DNA of 63,740 nucleotides, the filler included, from Globobulimina sp. (taxonomy: Eukaryota), in assembly GCA_003354225.1 (NCBI GenBank). It is 25 parts of 25 records of this genome, joined end to end, with 100 filler letters (N's around TTAATTAATTAA, not from the genome) between each part and the next. Parts side by side here need not be neighbours in the genome. Positions count along the whole stretch, not along the records: positions 12,779 to 15,233 come from PIVH01006601.1; 24 more parts are not named here. One strand, 5' to 3'. Within the stretch, counting starts at the first letter, position 1. The number at the start of each line of letters is the position of its first letter. Shown here one piece after another: positions 5,490-25,449 of the stretch. The notes beneath the pieces are model-generated. The model was not told where the DNA came from and did no database searches. It saw only the letters and a list, made by a program, of their open reading frames with translations. A program made the position numbers and the translations under genes.

Positions 5490-7568
5490 CTAGTCTTGAA
5501 AAGCTTTTTGTGTTTCGGCCTCATTTTCTTCTTCTTTTGCAGCATCATTTTCTTCTTCTCGTCCAACAGAACCATAAACAGGTCCTTTATCATTACTTTT
5601 TGATATTTTTTCCATCTCCAACTCATCTCCACTTTTTTTAATTGAATTAATTTCCAAATCAATCTCCAAATCTCGATCAGACTGCAAATCTTCTTGAATC
5701 GCAGCACAGCAACAACAAACCGCCCAGCTACAAATATCAAATAACACCATCGACGAATCGATTTTGTAATATAACTTAATATTTCCTCGATTGATGCAGC
5801 ATACTATCATATAAAATAAATAAAAGGCCAACCCCATCTGCAAAATAAAAAGAAAATGGTAAAAAACCAAAATATCCAATACGCAGAAATCCATAAATGT
5901 TTCCAATAATTATCTTCAAAATGTGTATCAGAAGTATTGTTTGTATGTTTAATCATTTTCAATCGTGTTCTCATTTGAAAGTATGGCGGACATAACAGCG
6001 CAAACACAACAATCGGAAACTTCTTCACACATTCAAATAAGTCATGTGTCCAATACACCAGGTCCTCCACAACAATATATCCCTTATGAATGCATAAGGT
6101 TTTGTAAGTAGCCAATACTTCAAACAATAAAACCACACAAAAGGGCAAGGCAGCCACCAGAGAGGCGGTCTGCAGTGCAGTTAAGGCGGTGCTTCCCCCG
6201 CCGCCCGATGCCAATAATACCGCTGCTAATACACCTTCCGAGACCGCCCAGAATGTCCGTTGTATTTTCGGCGGCGAGGGGTTGCCGCCAGCCGTTAAGA
6301 TATCGATTACATGCGAGGCAGAGTCGGATGACGTTATGAAATACATTAACATCGCGATAATGGACAACACCGAGATTAAATTTGCTAATGGCAAGGTGTT
6401 GTAGGCCGCAAATAGCATATCTTGCGTAGTGGTATAACACGACAATCGCACGATTTTATGCCCTTCGTATTCAGAAAACCACTCACTTTCATCATATGCA
6501 TTGCCATCCAAATCAGCACATTCCACGCCATTTTGTATTGAGCCTAATTCGTTGTATAAGCCAACGCCGCCATACACCGCAAACCAAATACATGTCATTA
6601 GGGTCGGAACCATCATGTTTCCAATGATAAACTCTCGAATTGTTCGACCGCGCGAGATTTGAGCTATAAAAATACCGACAAATGGCGCCCAAGCAATCCA
6701 CCTATCGAATGAATTGCAATTATATACAACAAATAATACGTATACGAACATACCATGCCCAATAAAATACAGTCCAGCCCGCATGTGTTGAATGTCAGTT
6801 CTATTATCCATTGGAAATGATAACCAACCGCTTGGACGAATAAATTAAGGATAAAAAAATGATCCAATACGAGGAACATGTAAAATAAATTAATGAATGA
6901 AAAACTAAAATTTACCTCCGATAGTCGCCGAATTCCGTAATCTAAGCCAGTCAGCACCGATAATGTGGCAAATGCGGTGATGACGAACATTGTAATTAAT
7001 TGATTGGTCAAATTGTCCTCGATTCCAAACACATACTTTAATCCGGCAATGATTGCTAATGTACCAAAACCTAAACTGGTGGCCACACCAAACATTGTTC
7101 CGATGACTGAGGTTAAGTCAATTAAACAGCCAATAAAACCATTGGCGTACTTCTCGCCAATCAGCGACATCAAACACACACTCTCTCTCAGCGGCTCATT
7201 TAATACATGATGGTGGTATGCCAACGGCAATGCGGCTGCGCAGTAACAGGCTGACGCTGTAAACCCCTTATTATTGAATAGAATAATTAATTCATTTGCA
7301 GTCGATATTAATATATTACATACCCAATGGAACCAAGTGATATTTAATGCTTCCATGGCTTGCTGGTTTGTAGTTAAATGGTACCATCGCGAAGAGCCGC
7401 TTTGCATAGTATCCAAATGATAGACTGGTTCATAAATACCAAAGAAATACAATCCAGTCCCCAGACCTGCACTGAATAACATGCTAAACCAAGTGAATAA
7501 GGGATATTTAGGTGGTTCGTCTTCTGGCCCTAACTTAATATCTCCAAAAACGGAGAACATGAAATATA
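5490..7568 (-). CDS. BCCT-family betaine/carnitine/choline transporter with a Cys-rich PLAC8-like tail. 5'-partial, spliced, two apparent frameshifts
   Basis: Motifs FGDIKLG, WFSMLFSAGLG, FHWG (after intron 7267-7323), [46 protein letters not shown] (intron 6702-6753) and YFITSSDS. Confidence 0.9.
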
Positions 7569-12375: not shown

Positions 12376-12778
12376 TTATAATAAAGCTAGAAATTAAAGG
12401 ACTCAAAGAAAAATAGGTGAAAAGGTTCTCACTGCAGTCTGAAAAACTTTTAGGAGATAAATCTTTGTCTACGTCGTTAGATGACATCGTTTCCATACTT
12501 TCCATTTATGATTTATTATATTGGTTTACTAGTAGAACCAATGAAAATAAATAAACAATTTAAACATGAATTTATATGTGGTTTGAGAGTGCAATGATAC
12601 AATAATTATTATTAAAAAAAAAAGAAAATCATTGTCCATTAGAAGAAAATCCTTCGATCATTAAAAAACTAATTGGAGNNNNNNNNNNNNNNNNNNNNNN
12701 NNNNNNNNNNNNNNNNNNNNNNTTAATTAATTAANNNNNNNNNNNNNNNNNNNNNNNNNNNNNNNNNNNNNNNNNNNN

Positions 12779-13062
12779 ATAGTTTTGTTGTTTTTGCTTT
12801 CCCCCTTTTTAATTAATTTGATTTGTGTGCTGTTGCTTTGTGATGAGACATAACATTTTTTTTTTCTGGCGAGCGAAGCGAGCCAGGCACGAGCACGAAG
12901 TGCGAGTGTCCTTCGGAGTTCGGATCTGACTGATCACAAAAACGAGTGAAAAGATGTTTAATAATTTATCATTTATTTCATTCGAATTTTTGGGTACTCC
13001 ATTTTTGGGTACCCATAGTTTTGTTGTTTTTGCTTTCCCCCTTTTCAATTTGATTTGTGTGC
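12779..13062. repeat. About 236-bp repeat unit bounded by a ~48-bp direct repeat, with an internal GC-rich hairpin cluster
   Basis: 12779-12830 matches 13015-13062, with the first 31 bp identical. Hairpins at 12866-12925. TTTTTGGGTAC occurs twice. Confidence 0.75.
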
Positions 13063-13200
13063 GGAGGATATTTTATTTCTTGCTGTAGTATTATGTCATA
13101 GTATGTGTTACTTTTAGCGACAAAAAAAATGACTAAATAAAATATTGTATGTGTTACTATATTAATTAAATTGGCCCGAAATATACAAATTGTACCGTTT

Positions 13201-14881
13201 TTAGATAAACCCAACCATATTCATTATGGTAGAACACAACCCTCCGACCATTGCTATAAAACCAAATACAAGAATTACTACACATAATAATCTCATATTT
13301 CTTGTCAACACACGATCTTTCTTTGAAATTGTCATATAAAATATTACAGGAAACACAAATAAAACCAACATGCCACAACTCGCTTGTACCAACGCTAAAA
13401 TTTGAGCGACGTCATTAACGAATAAAGATATACACCAAACACAGGCATTTATCACAAAATAAACAACTCTCTGCGCTGCATTTGATCTAAACAAAGTCGC
13501 GGCACTTCCATCCGCACGATAAAACACTAAGTTTTTCATTGAAATTTTAACATTCCAAAATAACAACGGATATGAACCAATCATATTGAACGACATTAAA
13601 ATTCTTAATAACGCCACAATGCTGGTATTGCTTCCATTATCTAACGACTCAATAACATTTTGTTGCACATCTTCACCAAATGTGAAATAAGCAGTGACGA
13701 TCATAAACAAATTCAAAATCAATATCAAAGCAAAACTAATTGCGGTTACCTTCCAAAGTGGACAGTCGTTGCACATTAATATCATAATTAAATAATAGAA
13801 TTTATAGAATACGATAGCAATCATCATCAGGCATACAATGATTACTCCGGTGCGCAATATCCAGCGTCAGAAAACGTTGTTGTTTCTGGATATTATGCAC
13901 CGATATATATTTTTTGTAAATTCTATTATTTCACTGTCTCATGTGAACAACGTCCAATTTTGTTACCTTTGCCATTGAAGCAACGGATCTATTCACTAAT
14001 TCACCATATAACGGAGCTGTATTAAAATGCGCAAAAAAAGCAGCAGAAAAAACACCAAATGATTCCAACCAAAACCACAGAACCATCGATGATCCATTAT
14101 ATGTATTCGCCCATTGGACAGATTTATGAATAACTGGAGTCACAAAGAAATTGTAAGAAATATATGCCACTGTAATCGCAGTAGCAACCATTCCAACAAT
14201 TGATGTAAATTTTAAATTATCCAAACGAGTCAACAACGTCAATGGGAACAAAACAGCAAACATAGTTACTGTCAAAATGAAGCATTTTGTAGCTATAAAT
14301 GACGTAAATGAAGTAATATGTATTTCTGTTATAATTTGCTCGTTGATAAATATGCCATATTCAGACAAACCGTTCGATATAAAATCACCAATATACACTA
14401 AAAATAATACGCAGCACATGATGGAAAACACAATCAATACGAAATCAGTAAATAATGCAAAGTTTTGCCCATAAATTTTTAGTCCAATGTCTCTAAATTC
14501 GAATACTCGCAAACGTTCAGCAGCTTTCACCAAAAATATCCAACAGATAAAAGAAAAGATCATGGATATGAATAAGAGAAAGAGTGTGGGTAATAAGCCA
14601 ATATTGGCAGTGGCCCACGGAAGGTTTAGAATGCCGATACCCACGGCCGATTTGACAATGCTAAAGCCAATGGACCAGGGCGATGCGCGTCTGCCAATAA
14701 TATGTGATAATGTCGGATCATGCAATAATTTGTGTAGTGGCACTTTGAGGTCTGAATATGAGGGATCATCGCTTCTTGTGATTGGTTTTGGTTTGACACT
14801 CTCCAATGGAATGGATCCGTAATTATTCTGTGCTAAATCATTGCCTACGGATTTAAGTCGATCGTAGACTTTGATAGACAT
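13201..14881 (-). CDS. Amino acid transporter (Aa_trans / SLC38-like), two exons
   Basis: Motifs IVKSAVGIGILNLPWA, FPLTLL..LDNLKFTS, AFFAHFN and AYFTFG. Removing intron 13750-13966 joins the two ORFs in frame (MAK|VTAIS). Confidence 0.9.
13750..13966 (-). mobile_element. Introner-like intron (TIR element with a target-site duplication)
   Basis: GTTACCTT occurs at 13745-13752 and 13962-13969. Imperfect TIRs lie at 13753-13776 and 13941-13962. Confidence 0.65.
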
Positions 14882-15055
14882 CTCTTTGCAAAAAAAAAAT
14901 GAGAAAGTTTTTTTCTTGACTACATCAAGAAATAATCAAACCACAAGGTGTTGTTCGGAATGTGTTAAATGTATTATTAATAATAAATTTGTTCGACAAC
15001 ATCAGCATATAAAGCAAGATTAATACAATGATATCTGATGACAACAACCATTCAT

Positions 15056-15232
15056 TTATAATATTTTTACAGCGTTTGTTTTAAAATATAATGAGACCGC
15101 AGCTCTGTATGATCCATCTTGAATGGCTAATGAATTACCAATAATTTCATCATTGATTGCAAATTGTAATGTTTTTGTGTCAAAATCTAAACACATTGTA
15201 ATAATGTCATTTTCTTTTGCTCTCCGCTTAAA
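15056..15232 (-). CDS. 3' end of a SPRY/B30.2-like domain protein (not in the ORF track)
   Basis: Manual translation: ENDIITMCLDFDTKTLQFAINDEIIG...GSYRAAVSLY..., then stop. Confidence 0.65.
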   Translation of the reverse strand, partial: FKRRAKENDIITMCLDFDTKTLQFAINDEIIGNSLAIQDGSYRAAVSLYFKTNAVKIL

Positions 15233-15333
15233 GNNNNNNNNNNNNNNNNNNNNNNNNNNNNNNNNNNNNNNNNNNNNTTAATTAATTAANNNNNNNNNNN
15301 NNNNNNNNNNNNNNNNNNNNNNNNNNNNNNNNN

Positions 15334-20441: not shown

Positions 20442-22114
20442 TCCGCCGTCCTCTCCACCACGTGGATCATAGTGCCCCGGTGTTCGTGGGACGCGGTGAT
20501 ATCCAAAAAAGTGATATCCAGAAATGAGTTACTTACTTCATATCCACCTAAATAAAAATCGTCATATTTATTTTCAACCAATTCCGTATTGTTAATCACT
20601 CCAAAAATAACACCTTCTTTACTAAATTGAACAGCATGAATTAAGCCAACTGCATCCTGATAAACATTCAACTGTTTTATGTCACCAATCTCACCAACGA
20701 TACCATGAAATGATTCAATGTCTACATTTAGAATATTATCAGCTGATATTTTCATATTATTCACAGTATAATTATTGCCATACATATCCCCATAAATGCG
20801 ATCGCCTTTAAACTCATAAATAAATTGTATGCCATTAATTAAACTAAATCTATCCAGCTCAATCCTGGAAGTATTCAAATCTTCATATATTGTCATAATT
20901 GAATACCATATGTTTGCATCAATAACGGGTAAAACATTCCATTCTTCGAAATGTGCCATATTATCCATACTGTATTGATAGTTATAATCAGCATAAAAAG
21001 TATTGCTTTCTGTTAATTCATTATATTGATTCAGATTATTGACACCTATATCCTCTACAAAACCTACTCTGACTTCGTCTGTCAGAAATATAACAACCAC
21101 CGTCAGAATTGTTACTATTACACTCCCGCAATAACCGCATGCAAAACCCTTTCCAAGTCACAAAAATAACATTATTTGATATTAAAGTTTTTGAATAAAA
21201 ACAAAGAGAAACAAACCCATTCGGATATATCATCTTGTAATGTTACCAGTAATTTCTTTTTTGTCACAGCATTAATATCGTCTTTTGCATCTGGAAATAT
21301 TTCCGCAGTCTCATGTTTTTCCATTAACTCGATCTCTGAGCGGCTATCCACATTTTGATTTCTTTCCAATCGTTTAACCCTCCAATGATTTTGAACAAGT
21401 TCGAGTAAAAACGCATTATAAAATATCAAGGATAAACCGTAAGGAATAGTACTTATTACACCCCACATTCCAGCAAACAGCCAAAACGTTTCTGAGCCAA
21501 AAAATATCCAACACATCATCATAATTTGTGCAATAACTGCTGTAATTCGATATAAATATATTTTATAATTTGCATAATCTGCCAAGCCACTAAATAATAT
21601 GTATGCGATCGCTTGAAATCCACTGCTTATAGATATCATTGACGATGCATAACTTTCTGGTTTTAATTGCCAGGAACCCAATGATACTCGCAATGTGTAA
21701 TCAGAATTAATTGCTTTATCATTCCAATCACATCCATACGCCGTGTTATTTAAACACGAATAACGGGTTGCCACTAAACAATTAATTAATATTAATATTA
21801 AATAAAAGTATGACATGTACCAGCAACTTAACTTAATGTCAGGAACACTGGAAATACGAAAGCCAGAGCAACACCATTTGTTGGTGAATTAGCCCAATCA
21901 AATAGCCACCTTTTTTTTATTAATTATTAAATATGCAGAATTGCAGATTAACATTTTTGTAATGGACATACCAAGAAACGATTTCTTTGCGTGTTGTCAT
22001 TTCTACATATTCATTTGTTGCATGTTCCATCTGTTCAGCATTATAAGTACTGTCATCTGGCGTTTCTTTATCTTTTAATTGAAATAATGTTTTATCAACA
22101 CCTTCTAGTGCCAT
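20442..22114 (-). CDS. Atg22/UMF1-like MFS transporter, spliced, 3'-partial
   Basis: KEIVSW / LFDWANSP across an intron, plus SGLADY, FYNAFL..LV and DDIS. Confidence 0.72.
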
Positions 22115-22895: not shown

Positions 22896-23232
22896 NNNNN
22901 NNNNNNNNNNNNNNNNNNNNNNNNNNNNNNNNNNNNNNNTTAATTAATTAANNNNNNNNNNNNNNNNNNNNNNNNNNNNNNNNNNNNNNNNNNNNTCTGA
23001 TTGATACAATACACACACAATAACAAACACACAAAGCAAGCAAAATGACGACAGAGTTAGTGTGCTGATGTCAACTTGACATCTTCGAATACTAGGTTGA
23101 AAACCACTCTAGCTAACCCTAAATGTAGCCTAATGTAGGCGCAAAAAACTTAGTCAATCACAAAAGAAGTGTTTGGAAGTGTGAACCTGATATCGCCATC
23201 AATAAATCCATTACTTCGCATCAACAAAAAAT

Positions 23233-23473
23233 GAGCCTACACAAGTTAATTAGTCACTATGTGACTATTTAGTGACTATTTGTGACTATTTGTGACTTTT
23301 TAGTGACAAAAACGAAAATGAACAACTATTTAGTAACTATTTCAATACAAAAACGAAAATATGCAACTATTTAGTGACTATTTCAATACAAAAACGGAAA
23401 ATGGTAACTATTTAGTCAACTATTTAGGAAACCTAGGCAACTATTTAGGCGACTATTTAACTTGTGTAGGCTC
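23233..23473. mobile_element. MITE (241 bp) with 23-bp TIRs and an 8-bp TSD
   Basis: GAGCCTACACAAGTTAA(T/A)TAGTC at both ends, inverted. CAAAAAAT at 23225-23232 and 23474-23481. Internal (G/A)ACTATTT repeats. Confidence 0.88.
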
Positions 23474-23710
23474 CAAAAAATATATTTAATTTAGCGGCAA
23501 AAAGATATTACAGTCCAAAGTGATGACGTTAAAGTTGCAGACCTATTATAATGATTAAGTGTTACACACACATACATATTGCGAACTACCCATAATATTA
23601 TTGACAGAAAGAAAAAAGATGGATGACTGTAATTAAATTACAAAAACAAAGACAAAGACCTACAGATTATTAAAAATAAGTGTGTTAAATATGTCACATC
23701 AACTCATTTA

Positions 23711-25449
23711 TTAACCATATATACCACCACCCATATTTGAAGGAGGAGGTTGTCCGCCAACACCCATATTATTCATATTTTGCGGTGCGAAGCCACTTTG
23801 TTGATTTTGTCCAAACATTTGTGGATTACCGGGACCCGCAATCATTAATCGAGTACCAACAAAATTCTTTGCCGCAGCATTTATCGCATCATTTTTAGCG
23901 TCTTCTTGTTGTTTTTGATCATCTGCAATTTTTTGTTCTTGTTGTTGTATTTTTTGATACAAAGTATCCAATTTATCATTAAATGTACGAAAGGTTTGAA
24001 CCATATACGGCATACAGAATTGTGTCAATTGATATCGCCACGATAGCTCCAACACAATATCTGGTCGAATTAAATTATAACACGTAAATAGACACGCCGC
24101 GAAACATGATTTTGGGCATTTAGCCGACGACGCTAGATTCTCAACGAAAAATCGTAATAATTCCTCCGCTAACGGTGGATCTTGAGATAACTGCGCCGTT
24201 TCCATGGCGTCTTGCCATAAACCATCTTGTTTGGACAATGCAATGGAAGTCGTCCATCTCTTATTGGTTCGATATAAATGAGCCGCAATACGGCGAAACT
24301 CCAATAATTGATGTTTTTGTAATTGCTGTGCTAATGCAATCTGATCAAACGCATCATAATCTTGTATAGATTCCCGTAATTGTCTGTAATTTTCTTCCTG
24401 TACTAATAACTCATTCACAGCTTCATTGACCACCGCAATATTATCTCTCTGTACATGCAATAAATATTGTTGAATAAGGGATAAATTGCGCGATAACCGG
24501 ATGGTTTGAACCACTCTCTTATGGTCTAATTTGGTGGATAATTCAATCAATAATTCCGATAAATATAATGGCTGTTCGCGTAAATAAAAATTAATGGCCC
24601 GGTAAAAAACTTCCGTATTACTGACGCGTACAATGATCCCTTTAAATTGTTCATGGTCCCAACAAGTCGGCGAATGCTGAATCATGGAATCTGCCGCATT
24701 GTCGAATTGATCATAGTGTGTATACAAAAACACAGTCTCTTTCCAATGCAAATTGTCTTTGCACGCTTGCAACAAAGTTGGTATATTCAAGCGCGACCAG
24801 AACAAATTGATATGTTCCATCAATTTGATTTCCTTATACTTCGCGTACAAAATACCTAATTGAGTATAAATGCCTTGATGGGCCCGATCTAAATTAATTC
24901 CCTGCTCCAATAAGTTGACCAACTCTGCAAAATGTCCGCCAATCTCATACTGCCGAATTAAATCATGCAAATGGTCCATAAACACGATGATATTCACGCC
25001 GCACATCTGCGCCAAGCGGAATTTGTGCGCGTCCACGCAGGCATAACACACGTCTTTCCACGTCTGGATACTGTTTGCTTTCCGCGCCGCGTCCACGGCT
25101 TCTTGGTACGACTCCAACCGCACCAAACACGACGCCAATTTCGCATAGTTGGAGATCTGCAAAAATATAATCTTGGCCGAAGCGAACAATTCCTCCACAA
25201 ACAAGCGGTCGCCCACTTTGTCCAATATCGCAGAGTGCGGAGAGGAGATAAACTTCTCCAAAGCCGCCAAATCCTCCACGTGGGCGTAGGAATAAATAAG
25301 TTCGCTGTCCACCGCCTTATCCCTCACTTTGCTGCGGGCCATGGTCAGAAATTTAATCAGTTCCTGATAAAGGCTCTGTTGTGCGAACTTATTCACCGCC
25401 AAAATCACGTCTTGATAATGCTGCGCGTCATCCGCTTTCAAAAAGGACT
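23711..25449 (-). CDS. CLTC: Clathrin heavy chain, C-terminal part
   Basis: Motifs AVDAARKANS..TWK.VC.ACVD..FRLAQMCG, HINLFWSRLNIP, LLEFRRIAAHLY and CFAACLFTCY.LIRPD.VLEL.W. Confidence 0.97.

Follow-up and report, generated by a model that had tools for sequence, protein, structure and literature searches.

An amino-acid transporter gene of the Aa_trans family occupies positions 14881..13201 (minus strand) of the window, by which we mean the whole 63,740-nt stretch of DNA analyzed here from assembly GCA_003354225.1, and its coding sequence is interrupted by a single intron of 217 nt (13750..13966, minus strand). That intron is the subject of the present analysis. It runs from GT to AG, consists of a short fold-back element plus one copy of an 8-bp direct repeat, and is built like an inserted transposon, with terminal inverted repeats (TIRs) and a putative target-site duplication (TSD) that supplies both splice sites. 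The window itself is composed of 25 unrelated contigs in strictly falling order of length, from 2456 down to 2452 nt, joined by separators of the form N44-TTAATTAATTAA-N44 (e.g., 12679-12778 and 15234-15333). The host contig of the transporter gene is a single 2455-nt assembly contig (12779..15233, with no strand assigned; PIVH01006601.1). Because the linkers join unrelated contigs, genes on opposite sides of a linker are not neighbors, and open reading frames (ORFs) or repeats that span one are artefacts. All comparisons with the rest of the window draw on ~59 kb of unrelated samples from the same assembly.

Both exons of the transporter gene are well supported by profile matches. Exon 1 (13967..14881, minus strand) comprises 305 codons from the ATG at 14881 and ends in ...SVASMAK, matching positions 2-224 of the PF01490 profile with an E value of 8.5e-25 and 87.7 bits. 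Exon 2 (13201..13749, minus strand) starts with VTAISF... and comprises 182 codons plus the stop, matching profile positions 232-409 with an E value of 1.3e-19 and 70.6 bits. Each score exceeds the Pfam gathering cut-off of 25.6 bits, and the full protein has 487 aa. Only two relatives emerged from a database of 5.8 billion proteins, out of 1143 candidates: P0001 (69% identity, 484 aa) and P0002 (44% identity, 479 aa). As the accession labels of these proteins carry the names of two foraminifera, Bolivina argentea and Nonionella stella, the host organism is probably a foraminifer (Rhizaria). Alignment across the splice junction is free of gaps in both orthologues, with SMAK|VTAISF facing SMTK|ITTITF and KMRW|ITVITF, and no other gap in the alignment with either protein points to a second intron. 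Reading through the intron leads to a stop after 10 codons, so its removal is required for the last 182 residues of the protein.

Anatomy and removal of the intron

The two intron borders lie within perfect copies of a direct repeat. Two copies of GTTACCTT with 100% identity lie 217 nt apart, at 13745-13752 and 13962-13969, so that each junction has the form AAG|GTAAC when viewed in the direction of the gene. The upstream copy (13962..13969, minus strand), which we regard as one half of the putative TSD, closes exon 1 with its AAG codon and provides the 5′ splice site with GTAAC. In the downstream copy (13745..13752, minus strand), AAG is the 3′ splice site and GTAAC opens exon 2, encoding Val-Thr. 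The repeat therefore overlaps exon 1 by 3 nt and exon 2 by 5 nt. As a TSD it measures 8 bp; assigning the terminal C/G pair to the element would shorten it to 7 bp, a possibility raised by the pairing of C5 of the intron with the G at position -5.

Between the repeat copies lies a fold-back element of 209 nt (13753..13961) that resembles a miniature inverted-repeat transposable element (MITE) and, with stops in all frames, has no coding capacity. No strand is assigned to the element or to the inverted repeats within it. The TIR arms begin at the very base that adjoins the repeat, one at the 3′ end of the intron (13753..13776, plus-strand sequence CCAAAGTGGACAGTCGTTGCACAT) and one at the 5′ end (13941..13961), and they pair with 18 matches over 22 aligned columns, 2 mismatches and 2 one-base gaps. 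Inside them are a subterminal inverted repeat of 20 nt (13790..13809 / 13912..13931, 90% complementary) and a central hairpin (13848..13902) whose 17-nt arms, 13848-13864 and 13886-13902, are 88% complementary around a 21-nt loop. Together these three nested pairs make the element one imperfect palindrome with ~40 nt extra in one arm, and the element and one repeat copy account for every base of the intron. Nearly all of these features had been described in the initial annotation, namely a 217-nt intron as the only one in the transporter, an 8-bp AAG|GTAAC repeat on both junctions, imperfect TIRs just inside it, the 17-bp-arm hairpin, restoration of MAK|VTAIS upon splicing, and a TSD supplying both splice sites. 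We recovered each of them, the repeat being exact and on both borders, the TIRs abutting it and the intervening DNA non-coding; the subterminal pair is an addition to that description.

The palindrome translates into a strong predicted fold. The intron RNA folds with -67.7 kcal/mol, as compared with -39.0 ± 4.0 kcal/mol for shuffled sequences (z -7.19), and pairing extends from intron position 5 to position -5. Folding as DNA yielded a z of -5.48, and in neither case did any of 200 shuffles do as well. No Rfam family was found on the host contig even at E ≤ 1, nor was a tRNA, which argues that the hairpin is not a known small-RNA gene.

Removal of the intron was examined in four public sequencing runs known by code (X1, X2, X6 and X8), whose contigs were aligned to positions 12800-15200 at 80% likeness. 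In the DNA-like run X1 (organism A), a contig of 567 nt (1 differing letter, covering 13436-14002) reads through the intron. In contrast, an X2 contig (organism B, study P2; 489 nt, 2 differing letters) skips exactly 217 nt, the same joint is present in a low-depth X2 contig that is ~12% divergent, and an X6 contig (organism C, study P3; 1330 nt, 56 differing letters) likewise skips exactly 217 nt. The X6 joint has the ends CT..AC on the plus strand, which is GT..AG in the gene. The intron site is not bridged in X8. Both X2 and X6 have zero cover over 14906-15067 as well as over the intron, and absent cover is not evidence that a run is RNA. Whether X2 and X6 are RNA or DNA, the 217 nt behave as one removable unit composed of the element and a single copy of the repeat. 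In the DNA case the insertion would be polymorphic, an outcome that would favor a transposon origin further. At position 13744, beside the downstream repeat copy, the near-identical X2 contig has T where the window has G, a synonymous change from ACC to ACA in the gene; X2 is thus not the same strain or allele as the window.

Several other observations concern the transporter gene. A second Aa_trans gene lies on another contig (48888-50231, plus strand), with ~23% identity to P0001, and is uninterrupted at the position matching the intron. Within exon 1, a 56-nt stretch (14017-14072, 9 differing letters) is common to longer contigs of X6 and X8, runs guessed to be RNA, that diverge on both sides of it, and loose ends with near-identical consensus occur at both of its borders in all four runs. 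This stretch is probably a paralogous gene or a motif conserved at the DNA level. An X1 joint between 14260 and 14504 (depth 3.7, 13 differing letters between its sides) was put down to an oddity of low-depth assembly.

Evidence for and against a transposon origin

We consider it likely that the intron derives from a transposon, whatever the copy number of the element. With somewhat less assurance, we favor a particular form of this origin: a solitary insertion of a short non-autonomous TIR element into the exon at an AG|GTAA target, with the TSD giving both splice sites. The exact repeat, the TIRs that abut it and the nested palindrome coincide in the anatomy of a TIR transposon, and no leftover intron sequence lies outside them. 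The 8-bp direct repeat and the terminal and nested inverted repeats are signs of DNA transposition, and a 209-bp non-coding sequence with TIRs abutting an exact 8-bp repeat conforms to the description of a MITE as a short non-coding TIR element flanked by a TSD. The 8-bp length also agrees with superfamilies that duplicate 8 bp (hAT-type or other), 7 bp being possible.

Comparison with the rest of the window indicates how unusual this combination is. The element has a fold-back alignment score of 23 against a mean of 9.9 (sd 2.55), and a score of at least 23 was reached by 8 of 4406 random 209-nt stretches of the window. Three 8-mer repeat pairs (39343/39631, 30193/30547 and 25883/26170) also gave high fold-back scores and were rejected as being without terminal TIRs by the anchored score. 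We further compared the transporter intron with 12 others, all of them inferred by joining ORFs without RNA verification. The transporter intron stands apart in length (217 nt versus 38-147 nt), in fold z (-6.6 versus -2.4 to +1.8) and in the length of the junction repeat (8 versus 0-5). An earlier statement that the other introns measure 40-80 nt proved roughly right, although their actual span is the wider one just given. Elsewhere in the window, a transporter of the BCCT family (betaine/carnitine/choline; 5810-7566, minus strand) is encoded in two ORFs that overlap at ~6667-6844, with a 38-44-nt intron as the probable link between them.

Among 146 AGGT pairs lying 30-400 nt apart, the whole 8-mer is common to both members in two, the pair at the transporter intron and one that spans a contig linker. 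We estimate the joint chance of a junction repeat and such a fold at ~5e-4 times 2e-3 per intron. The repeat, the abutting TIRs, the palindrome and the intron borders coincide to the base, which makes chance an unlikely explanation.

A number of results nevertheless weigh against a transposon insertion as the source of the intron. Anchored at the element ends, the TIR score is 9, only about 13th among 4077 8-mer repeat pairs, and the TIR arms are only ~82% alike. Three of the eight repeat positions, AAG, fit the apparent local splice consensus, and by our estimate a repeat of this kind would arise alone by chance in about 1 in 2000 introns. Given the agreement of AAG with that consensus and the count of 8-mer pairs, the repeat by itself is modest evidence. 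The type of the X2 and X6 runs, RNA or DNA, is not on record, and their joined contigs represent either spliced RNA or DNA free of the insert. A blastn search (word 7) of the ~61-kb window detected no second copy of the element, as its matches were confined to the element and to the pairing of its inverted arms with each other. Copies are the usual means by which a transposon is recognized. In JGI metagenome contigs, a fixed TIR-core pattern matched at least 116 loci; none of the loci listed is like the element beyond the seeded 18-32 nt, so that all of these are chance matches. No transposase Pfam domain (E ≤ 1e-5) was present in any of the 30 window ORFs of at least 200 aa, and the element termini match no superfamily motif that could be tested. 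The ends CCAAAG.../CAAAAT... also appear unlike the YARNG termini of hAT elements.

As a feature of the window in its own right, 9 of the 13 inferred introns end in AAG in place of the usual YAG. The JGI metagenome contigs contained no orthologue of the transporter gene, with 199 pattern matches and none confirmed by tblastn.

A simple sequence of events would account for the observed anatomy. A MITE-like fold-back of ~209 bp would have inserted into the coding exon of the transporter at the target AAGGTAAC, where filling in of a staggered cut would have left the target on both sides as a TSD of 8 bp, or of 7 bp with the last C counted as part of the element. As the target held the proto-splice site AG|GTAA, the upstream copy would then have served as the donor, GTAAC, and the downstream copy as the acceptor, AAG. 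The spliceosome would excise the element and one target copy as a 217-nt unit, restoring the frame without a footprint. Under this mechanism neither splice dinucleotide would come from the element, and the branch site would have to. Pairing of the arms from position 5 to -5 would turn the 217 nt into a rod with the splice sites close together, and such a fold may explain why an intron of three- to fivefold the usual length is tolerated.

The insertion is probably old, and solitary or very low in copy number. Selection now acts on all 16 bases of the repeat pair, as codons or as splice sites, so the perfect TSD is no sign of a recent event, and the diverged arms suggest that the insertion is not young. 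Exon 2 begins with Val in the window and with Ile in both orthologues (K|V versus K|I). This difference faintly hints that the GT-bearing target, and hence the insertion, may be lineage-specific.

Copy number and alternative origins

The initial annotation went beyond anatomy to propose membership in a family of intron-generating elements, and on this point our results diverge from it. A copy of a true Introner family, i.e., a multi-copy non-autonomous TIR element responsible for many similar introns at unrelated genes, appears unlikely to us. The anatomy is that of published Introners with TIRs and TSDs, and the frame is restored by splicing. The 217-nt joints and the restored frame and orthologue collinearity fit a precisely removed spliceosomal intron, with the type of the runs off record. 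What defines an Introner family is the presence of similar introns at several unrelated sites, at least four under the Methods of Gozashti et al. (2022; PMC9860276), and here there are 0 other copies in ~61 kb and 25 contigs. The best foreign blastn match to the element in the window has an E value of 0.14 over 27 nt, each TIR arm was found once at up to 3 mismatches, and none of the 12 other inferred introns resembles the element or has a TSD. A 98-nt intron at 21246..21149 (GTAACA...GGAAAG) was examined as a possible relative owing to its similar ends and was rejected for lack of a TSD and of sequence similarity. Since the window comprises only 25 unrelated contigs of ~2.45 kb, lack of copies there says little.

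At a likeness of at least 80%, summed X1 depth is 7.9-8.3 on the element, 5.4-5.5 on the adjoining exon 2 bins and 4.8-18.6 on exon 1 bins, as opposed to 60-109 on a true repeat of the same contig (12800-12961). Summed depth is not a copy number, and some records were filtered, so we use it solely as an upper bound on similar sequence; by this measure depth on the element is little raised. No loose ends at the element borders were found among those listed, and dispersed copies with TSDs of their own, as expected of a MITE, were found in none of the window, the JGI metagenome contigs and the X1 contigs. The arms of the element are diverged, and an old family could fall below 80% likeness. The repeat used for comparison belongs to a region downstream of the transporter gene (12779-13062) in which a direct repeat of ~50 nt (12779-12835 and 13016-13062, 237 nt apart) surrounds a GC-rich core. 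It has no Rfam match, and its summed contig depth, which is 60-109 in X1 and rises as high as 153 in X2, versus ~5 on the gene, identifies it as a dispersed or tandem genomic repeat.

A narrower version of the same idea would see in this element the first sign that Foraminifera (Rhizaria) harbor a TIR-type Introner family, whose members would be fold-back MITEs with TSDs of 7-8 bp that create introns upon landing in AG|GTAA. We find this proposal unlikely. It would add that a spliceosome adapted to introns of 40-100 nt can handle 217 nt thanks to the hairpin, and that other copies are too diverged (< 80%) or too few to register in one low-depth run.

Elements that duplicate 8 bp have moved in this genome, as shown by an undoubted MITE of 241 bp in the same assembly (23233-23473; with TSD, 23225-23481). 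Its 23-nt TIRs (23233-23255 / 23451-23473) are 96% complementary, its 8-bp TSD, CAAAAAAT, is exact, and it contains internal tandem sub-repeats of ~10 and ~41 nt. The element is situated ~230 nt past the stop of a clathrin heavy-chain fragment (23714-25447), one of the genes cut at linkers, and lies outside coding sequence; no other copy was found in the window. It resembles the intron element in its 8-bp TSD, TIRs, size range of ~200-240 bp and lack of coding capacity. In contrast, the two share no sequence similarity, and the TIRs of the 241-bp MITE are much better kept, its sub-repeats have no counterpart in the intron element, and only the latter lies within a coding sequence.

Alternatively, the intron could be an ordinary and possibly old one, with a repeat due to chance and splice consensus and a palindrome that either arose in place or landed in an older, shorter intron. 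At donor and acceptor junctions alike, AAG|GTA is close to the local consensus, chance alone should yield about one identical 8-mer among the 146 AGGT pairs, and the element is single-copy in the data searched. We nonetheless judge this origin highly unlikely. No sequence of an older intron remains, as one repeat copy and the span bounded by the two TIRs make up the whole intron, and insertion into an older intron would leave the TSD inside that intron rather than 3 nt and 5 nt into the exons. The very small joint chance of repeat and fold tells against it as well, and the lack of an interruption at this site in the distant window paralogue (23% identity) is weak evidence to the same effect.

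Repair of a double-strand break has reportedly been proposed as the origin of new Daphnia introns, by Li et al. in 2009. Such an event, a staggered break filled with palindromic DNA without any transposase and a repeat made by overhang fill-in, would suit the short direct repeat exactly at the borders, the single copy in the data searched and the absence of recognizable superfamily termini, but we think it quite improbable here, as end-to-end nested inverted repeats are a hallmark of TIR elements and unexpected in filler DNA, and a genuine MITE with the same TSD length resides in the same assembly.

Relation to known transposon-derived introns

A solitary TIR-element insertion, the origin we prefer, has precedents that differ chiefly in copy number and host. 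Introner elements of Micromonas pusilla and Aureococcus anophagefferens were reportedly described by Huff et al. in 2016. Many Introner families (sensu Gozashti et al. 2022), though not all, possess a TSD and/or TIRs, and the modes by which splice sites are acquired differ among them. Micromonas Introners are described in the review PMC11282704 as having a 3-bp TSD, with the 5′ GT/GC brought by the element and the 3′ AG taken from the TSD. Those of Aureococcus have an 8-bp TSD and both splice sites in the element, adding 12 nt to the transcript, and those of Symbiodinium have a 4-bp TSD, a 3′ splice site in the element and a 5′ splice site from the TSD (both in the text of PMC9860276). The Micromonas and Aureococcus elements thus described share with the transporter intron a short, MITE-like, non-autonomous form, TIRs and TSDs, and creation of an intron on insertion, and the Aureococcus TSD is also 8 bp. 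Unlike the transporter intron, which takes both sites from the TSD and adds nothing to the transcript, both belong to high-copy families.

The closest parallel in splice-site recruitment is provided by Introners of Florenciella sp., which carry neither splice site and co-opt both from the insertion site (PMC9860276, Fig. 2E). There too, as far as that account goes, the element lacks splice dinucleotides, both are drawn from duplicated or neighboring target sequence, and mRNA length is unchanged; the transporter intron differs in being one copy, in a host that is probably a foraminifer. A TSD that supplies both splice sites is therefore not new in kind.

Single transposon-derived introns are known from many eukaryotes, as outlined in the review PMC11282704. 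They are described there as harmless by virtue of splice signals in or beside the insertion, with TSDs at the junctions and TIRs inside, and the transporter intron differs only in its host group and in full reliance on the TSD for both sites. It belongs to this class, as a tidy example of a known process. Nonconventional introns of euglenids, as covered in the same review, have ends that pair through TIR-like sequences, TSD-like repeats at the junctions and a suspected MITE origin. Their borders are non-canonical, without GT..AG, in contrast to the canonical GT..AG of the transporter intron.

The word "Rhizaria" does not appear in the main texts of PMC9860276 and of a 2025 Introner survey (PMC12130899), and "foraminifer" does not appear in that of the latter, although supplementary tables may list more. 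Our literature search returned no report, by title or abstract, of Introners in foraminifera, and a 2026 rhizarian genome paper states that Introner signal went undetected in its species (PMC13746701).

Much of the origin of new introns is today ascribed to transposon insertion, on evidence that comes nearly entirely from multi-copy families recognized by the likeness of their introns. A single case such as this one represents a minimal route, in which any TIR element with a long enough TSD that lands in AG|GT would suffice and a specialized element would be unnecessary. The case comes from a lineage, apparently Foraminifera within Rhizaria, of which few genomic data exist and which neither of the two large Introner surveys mentions in its main text. 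The rod-like fold suggests that palindromic elements may be favored as new introns in short-intron genomes, as they would shorten the effective distance between splice sites. Should further copies be present in the full assembly, Introners would be extended to a new supergroup.

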